The notes beneath the pieces are model-generated. The model worked only from the letters and a program-made list of their open reading frames with translations. It did not search any database and was not told the DNA's origin. Positions 47,627-52,268 of a stretch of 64,000 bases of DNA are shown here, one piece after another. Source of the stretch: an uncultured Chloroflexia bacterium (GTDB taxonomy: Bacteria; Chloroflexota; Limnocylindria; Limnocylindrales; CSP1-4); contig CAWKLT010000022.1 of assembly GCA_963850555.1 (NCBI GenBank), positions 66,543 to 130,542 on the forward strand. Reading direction: 5' to 3'. Made by a program: the position numbers and the translations under genes. Each line of letters opens with the position of its first letter. The stretch's first letter is position 1.

Positions 47627-50294
47627 CTACTCGTGCCCGCCCGGACCGAGGGCCGCGACCGCACCGTGATCGTGGCCGTGGTCGTGCCCGTTGCCCCCGT
47701 GTCCGTTGCCGCCGGCGCCGATCGCACCCGGCGTCGGCACGCCCGAGATCGTCGGTGGCAGCATCGGCAGCATGCGCCCCGGGTCGATGATCCGGCCGTC
47801 GGCCGCCGCCCGCGTGGCCCAGTCGCGCTCGCGCCGGATGTAGGTGACCTCGGTCTCGCGGTCGATGGCCGCGAGCGCCATGAGGTCGATGTTCGGTTCG
47901 TCGCGGCCCGTGTGCGCGAGCTCGAAGTCGGCGCCGTCGCGCAGCGCGTCGTACGGGCAGGCGTCGACGCAGATCCCGCACAGGATGCAGCGGCTCTCGT
48001 CGACCTCGTACTTCTCGAGCACCCGCGGCTTCGGCATCAGCGCGCCGGTCGGGCACGTCTCGGCGCAGCGCCCGCAGGACACGCACGGGGTGTCGTTGAG
48101 GCTCATGTCGAGCGGCGTCGTGACGAGCGTGTCGAAGCCGATCCGCATGAAGTCGTAGCACGCCGCGCCGACCACCTCGGCGCACACGTTCGCGCACCGC
48201 CCGCAGTCGATGCAGCGGGACGGCTCGCGAAGGATGAACGCGTGCGAATCGTCGCGGATGTAGTCGTGGTTGATGCCGGTGAACCGGTTCTCCGTCACCG
48301 ACCGGTAGCCCGCGCCCTGGTGGTTCTGCGGCTCCAGGGTCTTGAGCGTCGTCCCGTACTCGATCCCCAGCCGCCGCAGGTCGCAGAAGCCGATCGCCTC
48401 GCACGTGCACTGGAGGCAGCGGGTGGACTCGGCGACGGCTGCCTCGGGCGTGTAGGGCAGCTCGTACTCGATGTAGCTGTGGTTGCGTTGGTCGGCGGGC
48501 AGGGCCTGCAGCCGGTAGCGCGATTCCTTCATCTCGGCCGTGAACGGCACGATCGAGAGGAACTCCGGCTGCGGCTCGGCCAGCGTCTGGCGGGTGCGGA
48601 TGGCGTCGAGATCCATGCCCTTGAGGAAGGCGTCCACGGCATAGGCGGCGCGCCGGCCCTCGGCGATGGCCTCGACCACCGTCGCCGCGCCGATCCGCAC
48701 GTCGCCGGTGGCGAAGACGCCGGGACGGCCCGTCGAGAACGTGACCGAATCGGCCTTGAGGCGTCGCTGCTTGGTGGCCTCAGGGCCCTCGTTGCCGGGC
48801 TCGGCCAGCCAATCGAGCTCGGGTCCCTGGCCGATGGCCAGCAACACCCGGTCGCACGGGATCGTGAACTCCGTCCCGGGCGCAGGCTCCGGCCGGCGAC
48901 GGCCGGACGCGTCCGGTTCGCCGAGCTGCATCCGGATGAACTCGACGCCCGTGACCTTGCCGGTCTTCTCGTCCGTGATGACCCGCGTCGGTCCGGCCTG
49001 GAAGATGGCGGTGACGCCTTCCTCGATGGCCTCGTGGACCTCGTCCGCCGCCGGCATGTCCTTCATGTCGCGGCGGTAGACGAGCGTGACCTCGCCGGCG
49101 CCCTGGCGGACGGACGTCCGCGAGCAGTCCATCGAGGTGAAGCCGCCGCCGATGACCACGACGCGCTTGCCGACGTGGTCCGGATAGGGCAGGCCGAGCG
49201 TCGCCGTGCGCAGGTACTCGAGCCCGTCGATGACGCCGTCGGCGTCCTCGTTCGGGATGCCGAGCTTGTTCGTGTCGTAGCAGCCGATGGCCACGACGAC
49301 CGAGTCGAAGCCCTGCATCGTCAGGTCGTCGAGCGTGAAGTCGCGCCCGAGCCCGGCGTTCGTGACCATCTTCGCGCCGAGGCGCATGACCGACTCGTAC
49401 TCGGCCTCGAGGACCTCGACCTTCGGGAGGCGGTACTGCGGGATGCCGTAGCGGAGCATGCCGCCGGGCGCCGGGTCGCGCTCGAAGACCGTGACGTCGT
49501 GGCCGGCGATCAGCAGGTAATAGGCGGCGGCCATGCCGGCAGGGCCGGAACCGATCACCGCAGCCGTGCGCCCCGACTTCGTCTGCTGCTCGAACGGGAC
49601 CGGCGGATCGACCCCTTCGTCCAGCTGCGCCTTGAGGACCTGGTCGCCGGCGTAGCGGTGCGTGTCGCGGATGGCGATCGCCTCATCGACCTCGTCGCGC
49701 CGGCAGTGCTCCTCGCACGGCGCCGGGCAGACCCGCCCGAGGACGGAGGGGAACGGGATCGTCCGCTTGAAGATGCGGGCCGACTCGCGGAAGTTGCCCT
49801 CGGCGTTCGCCTTGAGGAAGCCCGGGATGTCGATGTGGCTCGGGCACTTGTTCTGGCAGGGCGGCAGGCAGTACGCGTTGTGGTCGCTGAAGATCAGCTC
49901 GAGGTTCGTCCGGCGCAGCCGGCGGATCGTCTCGGTCTGGGTCTGGACCTTCATCTCCGGCTCGCACGTGCGCGAGCAGGAGATCGGCGGGTGCTCCTCG
50001 CCCTCGACCTCGACGACGCACATCCGGCAGGCACCGAAGCCCGGCAGCTTGGGTTCGTAGCAGAGCGTCGGGATCTCGATCCCGTTGTCGCGGCAGACCT
50101 CGAGGATCGTCTGGCCCTCGAAGCCTTCGACGACGCGGCCGTCGACCTCGATGCGGATCCGCGGCGTCGACTGGGGCCGCTGCGGCGACTGCGTGTCGAG
50201 CAGGCGATCGGCGAGCGACTCCGCGGACGACTCCGGGGCCGACGTCGCGGTCGTGGCGGGGCGGCCGGGCTGGACGGGCCAGGGTGTCGGTCAT
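47627..50294 (-). CDS. composite electron-input subunit: NuoG-type N-terminal [2Fe-2S] domain + GltD-type FAD/NAD(P)H oxidoreductase + NuoG/HydA-type [4Fe-4S] domains + C-terminal half of NuoI (one frame change near the 5' end)
   Basis: ATG 50294 (ATGA overlap with the upstream stop), then the frame of ORF 47627..50023. Domain motifs in order:
- [2Fe-2S]: 'IEVDGRVVEGFEGQTILEVCRDNGIEIPTLCYEPKLPGFGACRMCVVEVEG...SCSRTC'.
- GltD N-terminal cluster region: 'CLPPCQNKCPSHIDIP...GRVCPAPCEEHC'.
- FAD and NAD(P)H binding: 'AAVIGSGPAGMAAAYYL', 'GGMLRYGIPQYRLPK', 'VVVIGGGFTSMDC', 'FATGDV'.
- [4Fe-4S] domains: 'CIDCGRCANVC...CVSCGRCAETCPTGAL'.
- NuoI-type second motif: '[33 protein letters not shown]'. 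Confidence 0.75.
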
Positions 50295-51590: not shown

Positions 51591-52268
51591 TCAGGCCCGC
51601 GCCGGAGCGCCGGGGCGCCCGCCCCCGTCCAGCGCGGCGTCGAGCGCCGCGAGATAGGTCGATTCGGCCGGCCGGTGGTCGTCCACGGCCTTCGCCTGCT
51701 CGGCGGACGCCGCCGGCTCGAAGCGCAGGTGCGCGTAGTAGCTCGCCGTGCCGTAGATCATCGCGTACCAGGCACCCGTCTCGTGGCTGATCCGCTTGAG
51801 CGCCGCCACCGGCAGGTAGCCATAGGCGGTCTGGGTCGCCTCGAGGATGTCGAGCATCCGGGCCGGGTCGTGGTCGTGCTCATCGAGGATCGCGTCGACC
51901 TCCGCGAGATCGACCGGGGCGAACGGCAGGTAGGCGGGATCCGGGACCACGCGGCCCGACCGTCGCAGGGCCGATTCCTCGCGCCGCTCCCCGTAGGTCT
52001 CGGCCGCGCCCCAATGGACGTGGTAGCGGCCGCGCGTATCGATGCCGCCCATGTCGATGCACTCGATCGGGCAGGCCTGGGCACACTGGAAGCACGTCTC
52101 GCACTTGAGGGTGCCCCACTCGTCGTAGAGCAGCTGGAGCCGGCCGCGGAACTTGTGCGGGACGTCCTGCCGCACCTCCGGGTACATGATCGTGACCTTC
52201 GGCTCGAAGAACCGGCGCAGCGTCAGCGCCATGCCCTTCACGATGCCGAGGCCCGGGACGAAGCTCAT
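51591..52268 (-). CDS. fusion of the N-terminal half of NuoI (one 4Fe-4S motif) with a NuoE-like N-terminal helical domain
   Basis: ORF 51591..52268. The NuoI-like part is 'GMALTLRRFFEPKVTIMYPEVRQDVPHKFRGRLQLL...KCETCFQCAQACPIECI'. The NuoE-like part is 'MLDILEATQTAYGYLPVAALKRISHETGAWYAMIYGTASYYAHLRFEP'. There is no second CxxCxxCxxxCP motif and no NuoE [2Fe-2S] cysteines. Confidence 0.75.
   Translation of the reverse strand: MSFVPGLGIVKGMALTLRRFFEPKVTIMYPEVRQDVPHKFRGRLQLLYDEWGTLKCETCFQCAQACPIECIDMGGIDTRGRYHVHWGAAETYGERREESALRRSGRVVPDPAYLPFAPVDLAEVDAILDEHDHDPARMLDILEATQTAYGYLPVAALKRISHETGAWYAMIYGTASYYAHLRFEPAASAEQAKAVDDHRPAESTYLAALDAALDGGGRPGAPARA

Follow-up and report, generated by a model that had tools for sequence, protein, structure and literature searches.

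What becomes of complex I when its operon holds neither an intact nuoI nor nuoE, nuoF and nuoG in their canonical place? The question is raised by a stretch of 64,000 nucleotides (the window, in what follows) from an uncultured Chloroflexia bacterium of the Limnocylindrales (GTDB group CSP1-4; GenBank assembly GCA_963850555.1, contig CAWKLT010000022.1, positions 66,543 to 130,542). Its minus strand carries nuoA-B-C-D-H, three open reading frames here designated ORF1, ORF2 and ORF3, and nuoJ-K-L-M-N, an order obtained from the listing of open reading frames and from tblastn with the proteins of an intact relative (locus L001). The D-H junction is without nuoE, nuoF and nuoG, and a free-standing nuoI is absent from the window. 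Profile and structure-database comparisons identify two in-frame fusions, one of the N-terminal half of NuoI to a NuoE-like domain (ORF1) and the other of a NuoG-GltD-like protein, minus its molybdopterin-like domain, to the C-terminal half of NuoI (ORF3). The site of the split is exactly the nuoH-nuoJ interval, the usual position of the nuoI gene. A preliminary description of this DNA had placed nuoH directly after nuoD, read ORF1 as the start of NuoI followed by the NuoE helical domain, found the second half of NuoI right before nuoJ with a NuoF-like and a NuoG/GltD-like protein in between, and considered each half an orphan completed only by the other; all of this is borne out by the comparisons below.

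The N-terminal part of ORF1 (residues 9 to 83) matched models of NuoI over their first half only, positions 13 to 88 of 180 in NF004536 and 1 to 63 of 121 in TIGR01971. In a PDB search, residues 9 to 73 aligned to the TYKY/NuoI subunit of plant, Paracoccus, E. coli, Thermus and mammalian complex I, and the alignment takes in the N-terminal segment, a part that generic ferredoxins do not have. At the other end of the interval, residues 756 to 800 of ORF3 matched positions 71 to 115 of TIGR01971 (71 to 116 with the flanks of the motif included), making the two halves complementary on this model. NuoI models were the top NCBIfam matches of the isolated ORF3 tail, which aligned to residues 93 to 149 of Paracoccus NuoI and 85 to 177 of Thermus Nqo9. 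The halves lie about 4 kb apart on two polypeptides, so that no one chain carries both motifs as in NuoI. Six-frame translation of the whole 64 kb yielded exactly three CxxCxxCxxxCP motifs (one in ORF1 and two at the C terminus of ORF3), no intact nuoI and no NuoI-type pair of motifs on a single polypeptide. When residues 1 to 84 of ORF1 and 758 to 840 of ORF3 were spliced in silico (167 residues), the product matched TIGR01971 in a single stretch, positions 1 to 115 of 121 (E value of 3e-30, 104.3 bits). Likewise, when nine spliced pairs of this kind, taken from different lineages, were made into a profile, it was colinear with NuoI/TYKY chains (positions 3 to 124 versus 22 to 142 of 7ar7_I, E value of 1e-31). 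Full-length colinearity with solved NuoI/TYKY structures was seen for the spliced halves only.

The preliminary description had also considered that these might be generic ferredoxin domains unrelated to NuoI, which the profile searches speak against for both halves. With the ORF3 tail, the polyferredoxins FwdF and MvhB outranked NuoI in the PDB search only through the summed matches of repeated motifs; the best single stretches in the PDB and every NCBIfam top match were NuoI. Conservation within ORF1 peaks in the NuoI half, where 51 of 85 columns do not vary among 121 close homologues, and the four Cys and the Pro of the motif in this half are invariant across lineages, down to 26% identity. 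The NuoI-specific flanks (the N-terminal segment and FELA) and the eight ligands are invariant across two phyla. Judged by these matches, the halves are NuoI-specific and complementary, not generic ferredoxin motifs. Because each half has a single CxxCxxCxxxCP motif, clusters N6a and N6b would form only at an interface between ORF1 and ORF3, and half of a 2x[4Fe-4S] fold cannot hold clusters by itself, as ferredoxin chemistry has it. The C terminus of ORF3 contains three motifs in a row, starting at residues 693 (CIDCGRCANVC), 736 (CVSCGRCAETCP) and 768. The first two make a complete pair for two [4Fe-4S] clusters, and the same pair occurs in NfnA and StnC, which lack the third; the motif at 768 is therefore the orphan. 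An additional invariant residue of ORF3, C711, was considered as a candidate to complete the orphan motif and was rejected, since NfnA (9bov_A) has a Cys at the adjacent aligned position and yet has no third motif.

The segment between the halves had been taken for an input module of NuoE, NuoF and NuoG joined to GltD. A flavoprotein and iron-sulfur module is indeed present, but its nearest relatives are the NfnABC/StnABC transhydrogenases of the Bfu family and not canonical NuoEFG. For all three proteins, the best PDB relatives were chains of 9bov, 9n5u and 8oh5 (NfnABC/StnABC), and the genes stand in the order BfuC/NuoE-like, BfuB/NuoF-like and BfuA/NuoG-GltD-like. In ORF1, residues 120 to 187 matched just the first ~65 positions of NuoE/FdsG/HoxE models (2 to 64 of 145 in Pfam 2Fe-2S_thioredx). 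Neither Pfam nor NCBIfam found the thioredoxin-like [2Fe-2S] (N1a/C1) domain in ORF1, and there is no Cys motif after the helical domain. An AlphaFold2 model of ORF1 (46 homologues) reached a predicted local distance difference test (pLDDT) score of 85 to 96 in the helical domain and stayed below 50 in the region of the Cys motif, which is compatible with an incomplete fold and proves nothing. The top Foldseek match of the helical bundle was NfnC (9bov_C, root mean square deviation of 1.1 Å over 66 columns), and in the PDB the domain is closest to NfnC and StnA. In four other chains, P0241 (626 residues), P0139 (574), P0151 (610) and P0182 (685), the NuoI-NuoE fusion and a NuoF-like part are found in a single polypeptide; these may be real further fusions or the result of gene calling across frameshifts.

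ORF2 covers the core of BfuB only, aligning to residues 118 to 521 of 602 in 9n5u_B (E value of 1e-93), and NfnB, StnB and HydB score above any NuoF of complex I. It is without the N-terminal [2Fe-2S] (thioredoxin-like) and the C-terminal B3/B4 2x[4Fe-4S] domains of BfuB. The GRGGAGFP loop, the GEET motif and three of the four Cys for the B1 [4Fe-4S] cluster are kept. In the flavin/NADH loop, NADE is replaced by NGYG (NGYG or NAYG in all Chloroflexota variants), and the cluster motif, CGKSIPC...C, has Ser as its second residue of the four; in the variant L007 (CGRCIPG) it is the third Cys that has gone instead. Thus altered, ORF2 may not be a normal NADH site. ORF3 aligned over residues 45 to 778 to Caldicellulosiruptor NfnA (9bov_A, 4 to 699, E value of 5e-161), followed by T. 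sibiricus 9n5u_A and Sporomusa StnC (8oh5_C). It contains Fer4_20 (68.9 bits, cut-off 25.8) and Pyr_redox_2 (106.5 bits, cut-off 26.1), and its FAD (flavin adenine dinucleotide) and NADPH motifs (GSGPAG, GGGFTSMD and LVYRR) align with those of NfnA; no Fe-S ligand is missing from this Nfn-type NADPH/FAD domain. The motif from C625 to C636, after the GltD insert, is probably the second part of an N5/A2-type site. The NuoG model TIGR01973 matched only residues 47 to 148. The molybdopterin-like domain is absent, and the C-terminal half of NuoI stands where NfnA and StnC run on into it. The [2Fe-2S] ligands, the Cys and His of the GltD region and the three C-terminal motifs are invariant across lineages, and the His-rich tail of the protein, GNGHGGNGHDHGHDHG, might bind metal.

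Set against canonical NuoEFG, the module has no N1a, a NuoF-like protein below the equivalog cut-off (351.9 bits with TIGR01959, cut-off 558.65) and no molybdopterin-like domain. Set against Bfu enzymes, C1 is absent, as are B3/B4 and the N-terminal domain, while homology to Bfu subunits is the closest of all. Taken whole, ORF1, ORF2 and ORF3 pass no curated family cut-off. The inserted module is best described, from these comparisons, as a derivative of an Nfn/Stn-type Bfu module and not as a modified NuoEFG.

The exact sequence of ORF1 is not on record, and its homologues were used in its place. The best 120 (220 to 236 residues, 83 to 92% identical) came from JGI, ENA, NCBI and Logan assemblies, and two of them are named Candidatus Limnocylindrales (Chloroflexota, class Limnocylindria). 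More than 100 homologues, from independent assemblies, are near full length. Two relatives show the identical gene order with all genes intact on contigs of 2.36 and 1.68 Mb; their ORF3 has 886 and 878 residues, and the first has a NuoH of 446 and a NuoL of 668 residues. Limnocylindria also hold forms of ORF1 of 282 residues with a complete NuoE. In a representative-level search, full-length fusions of the NuoI N-terminal half to NuoE reached down to ~26 to 30% identity. On a 1.8-Mb contig of GCA_040769125.1, nuoABCDH is followed by a 253-residue protein with the NuoI half and a complete NuoE, a 636-residue BfuB-type NuoF that has the N-terminal [2Fe-2S] and the C-terminal 2x[4Fe-4S] domains, an 824-residue homologue of ORF3, and nuoJKLMN. 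Full-length matches of the Thermoleophilia type were found at six loci among the GTDB species representatives, all named "uncultured Thermoleophilia bacterium" (Actinomycetota), and one cluster member is named likewise; at least six Thermoleophilia species carry the intact operon. The locus search with the alignment of this type listed 80 loci, most of them ordinary NuoE/HydC proteins (Bacteroidales and others) that matched residues ~82 to 253 only and were discarded. Further variants of the operon come from the metagenome-assembled genome (MAG) of a "Chloroflexi bacterium" and from a JGI contig.

Among the loci fetched, the fusion gene was always accompanied by an ORF3 homologue when the locus was long enough, and the NuoI tail was present wherever the contig extends that far. 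Divergence between lineages amounts to 40 to 50% and is the same for core Nuo and module subunits, which fits a single origin and co-inheritance of the whole operon. The layout is thus conserved in two phyla, Chloroflexota (Limnocylindrales and others) and Actinomycetota (Thermoleophilia), where the preliminary description had proposed that related genomes be searched for it. Its suggestion of a functional arrangement agrees with the intact layout and invariant ligands of independent assemblies; as far as sequences can tell, the arrangement is under selection. The architecture itself is secure. A different neighborhood was seen in the "Chloroflexi bacterium" MAG GCA_016190715.1 (locus L005, 6481 to 14281): nuoABCDH, the NuoI-NuoE' fusion, NuoF' and the ORF3 homologue are followed by flavin reductase, ferredoxin, 2-oxoacid:ferredoxin oxidoreductase and rubrerythrin genes in place of nuoJ-N. 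Either the membrane-arm genes of L005 lie elsewhere or the locus is a different variant.

The rest of the operon is that of an ordinary enzyme (Table 1). The Q-module is canonical, with the CC...C...CP motifs of NuoB and the QHPSTHGV and GYLHRG motifs of NuoD, and the antiporter-like subunits are complete. By gene content, the operon is a complex I of the 11-subunit type, nuoABCDH-I-JKLMN. The region has ~70% G+C, and the G+C content of third codon positions (0.89 to 0.98) is uniform over all segments and junctions. The genes are tightly packed: 10 nucleotides separate nuoH from ORF1, ORF1 and ORF2 are 1 nucleotide apart (TGA-C-ATG), ORF2 and ORF3 overlap by ATGA, and nuoJ begins 8 nucleotides past ORF3. 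The NuoH of Limnocylindrales is ~446 residues long versus 355 to 375 elsewhere, with an extra hydrophobic stretch before the conserved C-terminal RGTLPRxRxDQL segment. NuoB has 255 residues versus 145 to 184 in other lineages, owing to an N-terminal extension of ~70 to 95 residues that is specific to Limnocylindrales. Directly upstream from nuoA there is a Methyltransf_28 (PF02636) gene, also at 3975 to 5213 in L001 and at 3313 to 4521 in the relative L002. NDUFAF7/MidA, an assembly factor of mitochondrial complex I, belongs to this family, and a link of the gene to the maturation of the complex I of the window is possible. The window spans the region of the chromosomal replication origin, as indicated by dnaA, dnaN and a recF-like gene, with the nuo operon ~25 to 40 kb away. 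Scans of the window for tRNA genes and Rfam families gave no matches.

Table 1. Position of the nuo operon, its inserted module and neighboring genes in the window
Feature	Position	Strand	Remarks
dnaA	12967-14166	plus	
dnaN	14503-15759	plus	
recF-like gene	15778-16980	plus	
nuoN	41555..43051	minus	listing of open reading frames
nuoM	43048..44710	minus	1-nt (nucleotide) insertion ~44588
nuoL	44707..46714	minus	1-nt insertion at 45839
nuoK	46711..47028	minus	listing of open reading frames and tblastn
nuoJ	47025..47618	minus	GTG start 8 nt past ORF3 stop
ORF3 (887 residues in corrected frame)	47627..50294	minus	[2Fe-2S], GltD-type, ferredoxin-like domains and NuoI C-terminal half
ORF3, C-terminal tail	47627..47725	minus	His-rich GNGHGGNGHDHGHDHG; specific to Limnocylindrales, absent from other lineages
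ORF3, residues 755-855, NuoI C-terminal half	47726..48028	minus	KYEVDESRC768-x2-C771-x2-C774-x3-C778-P...DFELA
ORF3, residues 686-751, NuoG/HydA-type ferredoxin-like domain	48038..48235	minus	Fer4_Nqo3 and FeFe_hydrog_A matches
ORF3, motif after GltD insert	48383..48418	minus	C625-x2-C628-x-C630-x5-C636; invariant in all lineages
ORF3, residues ~137-560, GltD/NfnB-type domain	48611..49882	minus	two [4Fe-4S] sites (Fer4_20), FAD GxGxxG, NADPH Rossmann fold with LVYRR
ORF3, start and N-terminal [2Fe-2S] domain	49934..50294	minus	N1b/A1 type; C77, C88, C91, C105; Fer2_4 at residues 44-119; ligands invariant
ORF2 (432 residues)	50291..51589	minus	NuoF/BfuB-like core
ORF1 (225 residues)	51591..52268	minus	NuoI N-terminal half and NuoE helical domain
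ORF1, residues 121-225	51591..51908	minus	NuoE/BfuC N-terminal four-helix domain and variable tail
ORF1, residues 86-120, linker	51909..52013	minus	HWGAAETYGERREESALRRSGR...; 17 of 35 columns invariant; AlphaFold2 confidence low
ORF1, residues 1-85, NuoI N-terminal half	52014..52268	minus	amphipathic N-terminal segment and C56-x2-C59-x2-C62-x3-C66-P67
nuoH	52279..53620	minus	1-nt insertion at 52699; 446 residues in intact relatives
nuoD	53628..54878	minus	quinone-site motifs QHPSTHGV and GYLHRG
nuoC	54906..55454	minus	listing of open reading frames and tblastn
nuoB	55457..56224	minus	255 residues; N2 cluster motifs CC...C...CP; Oxidored_q6 in relatives
nuoA	56218..56572	minus	1-nt insertion ~56442; tblastn with intact L001 protein splits over two frames
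Methyltransf_28 gene	56981-58192	minus	directly upstream from nuoA

To one reading we give a probability of roughly 60%: the enzyme oxidizes NAD(P)H, reduces quinone and pumps protons, NADPH is used at the flavin of the GltD domain, and two polypeptides together make up NuoI. Clusters N6a and N6b would lie at the interface of ORF1 and ORF3, with three plus one Cys contributed by each half. The trimer of the NuoE-, NuoF- and NuoG-like parts would act as a non-covalent clamp, topologically a giant insertion in the inter-motif loop of NuoI, that keeps both halves together. Such a role would explain the retention of the NuoE helical domain (the static, BfuB-binding part) and of the NuoF-like subunit; the only part of NfnC modelled in 9bov is this helical domain (67 residues). 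The last iron-sulfur domain of ORF3 would be set beside N6a, 22 residues separating its last Cys from the first of the NuoI half. Electrons would pass from NADPH to the FAD of the GltD domain, its two [4Fe-4S] clusters, the NuoG-type clusters, N6a/N6b, N2 in NuoB and finally quinone, and NuoH/J/K/L/M/N would pump protons as in ordinary complex I. ORF2 may serve chiefly as a scaffold, or it may be a second site in modified form. In Csac NfnABC, NADPH enters at the FAD of NfnA and electrons follow A7-A6-A3-A2-A1 to [B1-FMN-C1] (FMN, flavin mononucleotide), A4/A5 being a side branch (PMC11829005); StnC behaves like NfnA, oxidizing NADPH at a GltD-type FAD and sending electrons down the BfuA chain (PMC10482914). 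The side branch would here become the wire to N6a/N6b and, by analogy with these enzymes, NADPH is possibly the main donor.

The simplest history that we infer is that a cassette in Nfn/Stn order (C-B-A) entered nuoI where the gene encodes the loop, became fused in frame on either side and lost the molybdopterin-like domain of BfuA. The full combination of an Nfn/Stn module inserted in the NuoI gene, an N6a/N6b fold assembled in trans and NADPH as physiological donor is more tentative, and we would sooner bet against it than for it. Stand-alone Bfu clusters, without an ORF3 homologue or a NuoI half, were seen in MAGs of Thermoleophilia and Actinomycetes (L016 to L025); their BfuB shares its domain set and motifs with the nuo-embedded BfuB of Thermoleophilia, and in L020 and L024 the BfuB architecture is almost identical. 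These clusters are candidate relatives of the cassette donor.

Several points weigh against the preferred reading. The curated TIGR01971 cut-off (113.05 bits) is missed even by the spliced halves, and taken singly the halves stay below the NuoI cut-offs (50 to 54 bits for ORF1, 44 bits for the ORF3 tail), although NuoI models lead the matches every time. The AlphaFold2 prediction of the spliced NuoI, from a single sequence, had a pLDDT of 31 and was uninformative. Assembly of the halves in trans is predicted from sequence, and the donor from homology. A separate intact nuoI or nuoEFG may exist outside the 64-kb window, to which the absence applies. ORF2 is 87% identical to its L001 counterpart, and the three Limnocylindrales sequences compared all carry the same changed motifs; instead of a scaffold, it may be an active site whose properties have been altered. 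Finally, five genes of the operon are frameshifted in the window copy.

The state of ORF2 bears directly on the best surviving alternative, a complex I with two donors, in which the FMN of ORF2 takes electrons from NADH and the FAD of ORF3 takes them from NADPH, or one in which both pools are also equilibrated or transhydrogenated. The retention of GRGGAGFP, GEET, three of the four cluster Cys and the neighboring [2Fe-2S] of ORF3 speaks for it, and the fixation of the changed motifs in three Limnocylindrales points to selection and not to decay. Yet NADE has become NGYG or NAYG in all Chloroflexota and there are two distinct lesions of the cluster motif (CGKSIPC here, CGRCIPG in L007); moreover, an uncoupled short circuit between NADH and NADPH would be expected to dissipate the disequilibrium between both pools. 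We regard two donors as rather unlikely.

It is improbable that the enzyme of the window lineage still bifurcates or confurcates among NADPH, NAD, ferredoxin and quinone, or operates mostly in the reverse direction, making NADPH from quinol and the proton-motive force. The module does descend from bifurcating enzymes of the NfnABC/StnABC type, C1, B1, B3/B4 and the N-terminal domain are all still present in Thermoleophilia homologues, and confurcating Nuo-Bfu enzymes have been proposed by Schut et al. (PMC9304861). However, B3/B4 are needed for bifurcation, which their deletion abolishes in HydABC (PMC11829005). Because C1, B3/B4 and the N-terminal domain of BfuB are gone in the window lineage, the Limnocylindrales enzyme could not use the Bfu mechanism, and it is most likely a non-bifurcating NAD(P)H:quinone oxidoreductase. 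In Thermoleophilia, where no part of the Bfu core is missing, the enzyme might couple all four of these substrates.

That module and Nuo are separate enzymes sharing an operon, with the half motifs vestigial or serving other partners and a complete NuoI encoded elsewhere, is very improbable. Loci such as L005 do lack nuoJ-N beside the module, and the absence of an intact NuoI is an absence from the window. Against this, the eight ligands and the NuoI flanks are invariant in two phyla, no part of ORF1 is better conserved than the NuoI half, half a 2x[4Fe-4S] fold cannot bind clusters alone, and C711, found also in NfnA without a third motif, offers no completion of the orphan.

There remains the question of the frameshifts. 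In comparison to intact relatives, the window copy has uncompensated 1-nucleotide insertions in nuoA, nuoH, nuoL and nuoM (Table 1) and a frameshift at ~50218 to 50265, within the first ~25 codons of ORF3. Because of the latter, the listing of open reading frames begins ORF3 at 50023, as does the preliminary description where it names 47627 to 50023; the real start is the ATG at 50294. The observation of stop-free junctions with a strong third-position G/C bias, made in that description, stands for the junctions, but ORF3 of the window copy is frameshifted near its start. ORF1, ORF2 and nuoB, C, D, J, K and N are intact. Between 41500 and 61000, nearly every second gene is frameshifted, mostly by 1-nucleotide insertions, including those at 56981 to 58192, 58204 to 59248, 59308 to 59905 and 59991 to 60975. 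Unrelated neighbors (the Methyltransf_28, HPPK and luciferase-like genes and a hypothetical one) are frameshifted at a like rate, and sequencing or assembly error is therefore a likelier cause than decay of the operon; the pattern looks like uncorrected long-read indel error. The chimera that the preliminary description had thought of, or a fusion made by frameshift, is excluded by the same architecture in independent assemblies. For all the frameshifts in nuoA, H, L, M, the start of ORF3 and the neighbors, an architecture made by misassembly or false fusion, or a window copy that is a pseudogene or a decaying operon, has next to no chance, since ORF1 and ORF2 are full length and colinear with intact homologues, many JGI, ENA, NCBI and Logan assemblies share and so refute the artefact for the architecture, and neighbors are frameshifted at the density that sequencing error predicts.

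Complex I is among the most studied enzymes of bioenergetics, and a naturally split NuoI, with its two clusters formed at a protein-protein interface, would be a new structural solution. The locus also bears on how input modules were recruited to the ancestral 11-subunit enzyme, apparently here by insertion of a cassette into a gene and not by docking. If the fuller and more tentative combination named above is true, this would be the first NADPH-driven proton-pumping complex I, in lineages that are abundant in soil and freshwater, and the Thermoleophilia form would work on four substrates (NADPH, NAD, ferredoxin and quinone), with a direct tie between bifurcation and proton pumping. In vivo, NADPH is the more reduced of the two nucleotides and, speculatively, could give more driving force than NADH with low-potential menaquinone. 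An analogous argument has been made for ferredoxin in Nuo-Bfu by Schut et al. (PMC9304861). From the complete core in Thermoleophilia to the stripped one in Limnocylindrales, these enzymes make a natural series to test the need for the parts of Bfu. The source annotations call the three proteins "ferredoxin," "oxidoreductase subunit E" and "glutamate synthase small subunit"; with such labels, these lineages, which are widespread in metagenomes from soil and freshwater, will be scored in metabolic reconstructions as having no NuoI, no NuoG and an incomplete complex I.

To our knowledge, NuoI/TYKY has always been described as one polypeptide. The preliminary description had not recognized the architecture among known complex I operons, and the searchable full-text literature, subscription-only journals lying outside its scope, yielded no description of a split nuoI or of a nuo operon that contains an Nfn-type module. 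Spero et al. (2015) listed Chloroflexi genomes "missing only NuoG" and did not note a split nuoI, and complex I is not among the subjects of a 2026 comparative-genomics paper on CSP1-4/Limnocylindraceae. With NuoI/TYKY/Nqo9, the window version shares the N-terminal segment, both CxxCxxCxxxCP motifs, the FE(L/F)A signature, the position between nuoH and nuoJ and, once spliced, colinearity; it differs in being two polypeptides, the N-terminal half on a NuoE-like domain and the C-terminal half on a NuoG-GltD-like protein. With NfnABC/StnABC (9bov, 9n5u and 8oh5) the module shares the C-B-A order and a large subunit with [2Fe-2S], GltD insert and ferredoxin-like domain. Those enzymes are soluble, whereas the module of the window sits in a nuo operon, has the C-terminal half of NuoI in place of the molybdopterin-like domain and, in this lineage, is without C1, B3/B4 and the N-terminal domain of BfuB.

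Closer in concept is Nuo-Bfu (Schut et al. 2022, PMC9304861), a complex I with a Bfu-type input module encoded in the middle of the nuo cluster, predicted in Deferribacteres, Proteobacteria, Planctomycetes and Nitrospirae. Unlike the operon of the window, it has the 14 genes of a canonical nuoA-N, an intact NuoI and a NuoG-type BfuA without GltD, the BfuA of the window being of the Nfn type. That paper makes no mention of NuoI or Actinobacteria, and refers to Chloroflexi only for Mbh- and Por-type enzymes. In the mbx-like operons of Thermotoga and proteobacteria, a gltD-related flavoprotein stands in place of NuoI (Degli Esposti 2015, PMC4758237). In both, a complex-I-like membrane complex has a GltD-type NAD(P)H flavoprotein attached where NuoI would be; in the mbx-like operons NuoI is described as substituted, whereas the window keeps both of its halves and a bona fide Nuo with quinone-site motifs.

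Other 11-subunit relatives of complex I use different donors, NDH-1 with ferredoxin and Fpo with FpoF, and their input device docks at NuoI. The window shares with them the nuoABCDHIJKLMN backbone and the D-H junction free of nuoEFG; unlike theirs, its input device is covalently wired into NuoI. The operon belongs to a known kind, complex I with an alternative input module, and what would set it apart is a core iron-sulfur subunit assembled in trans.

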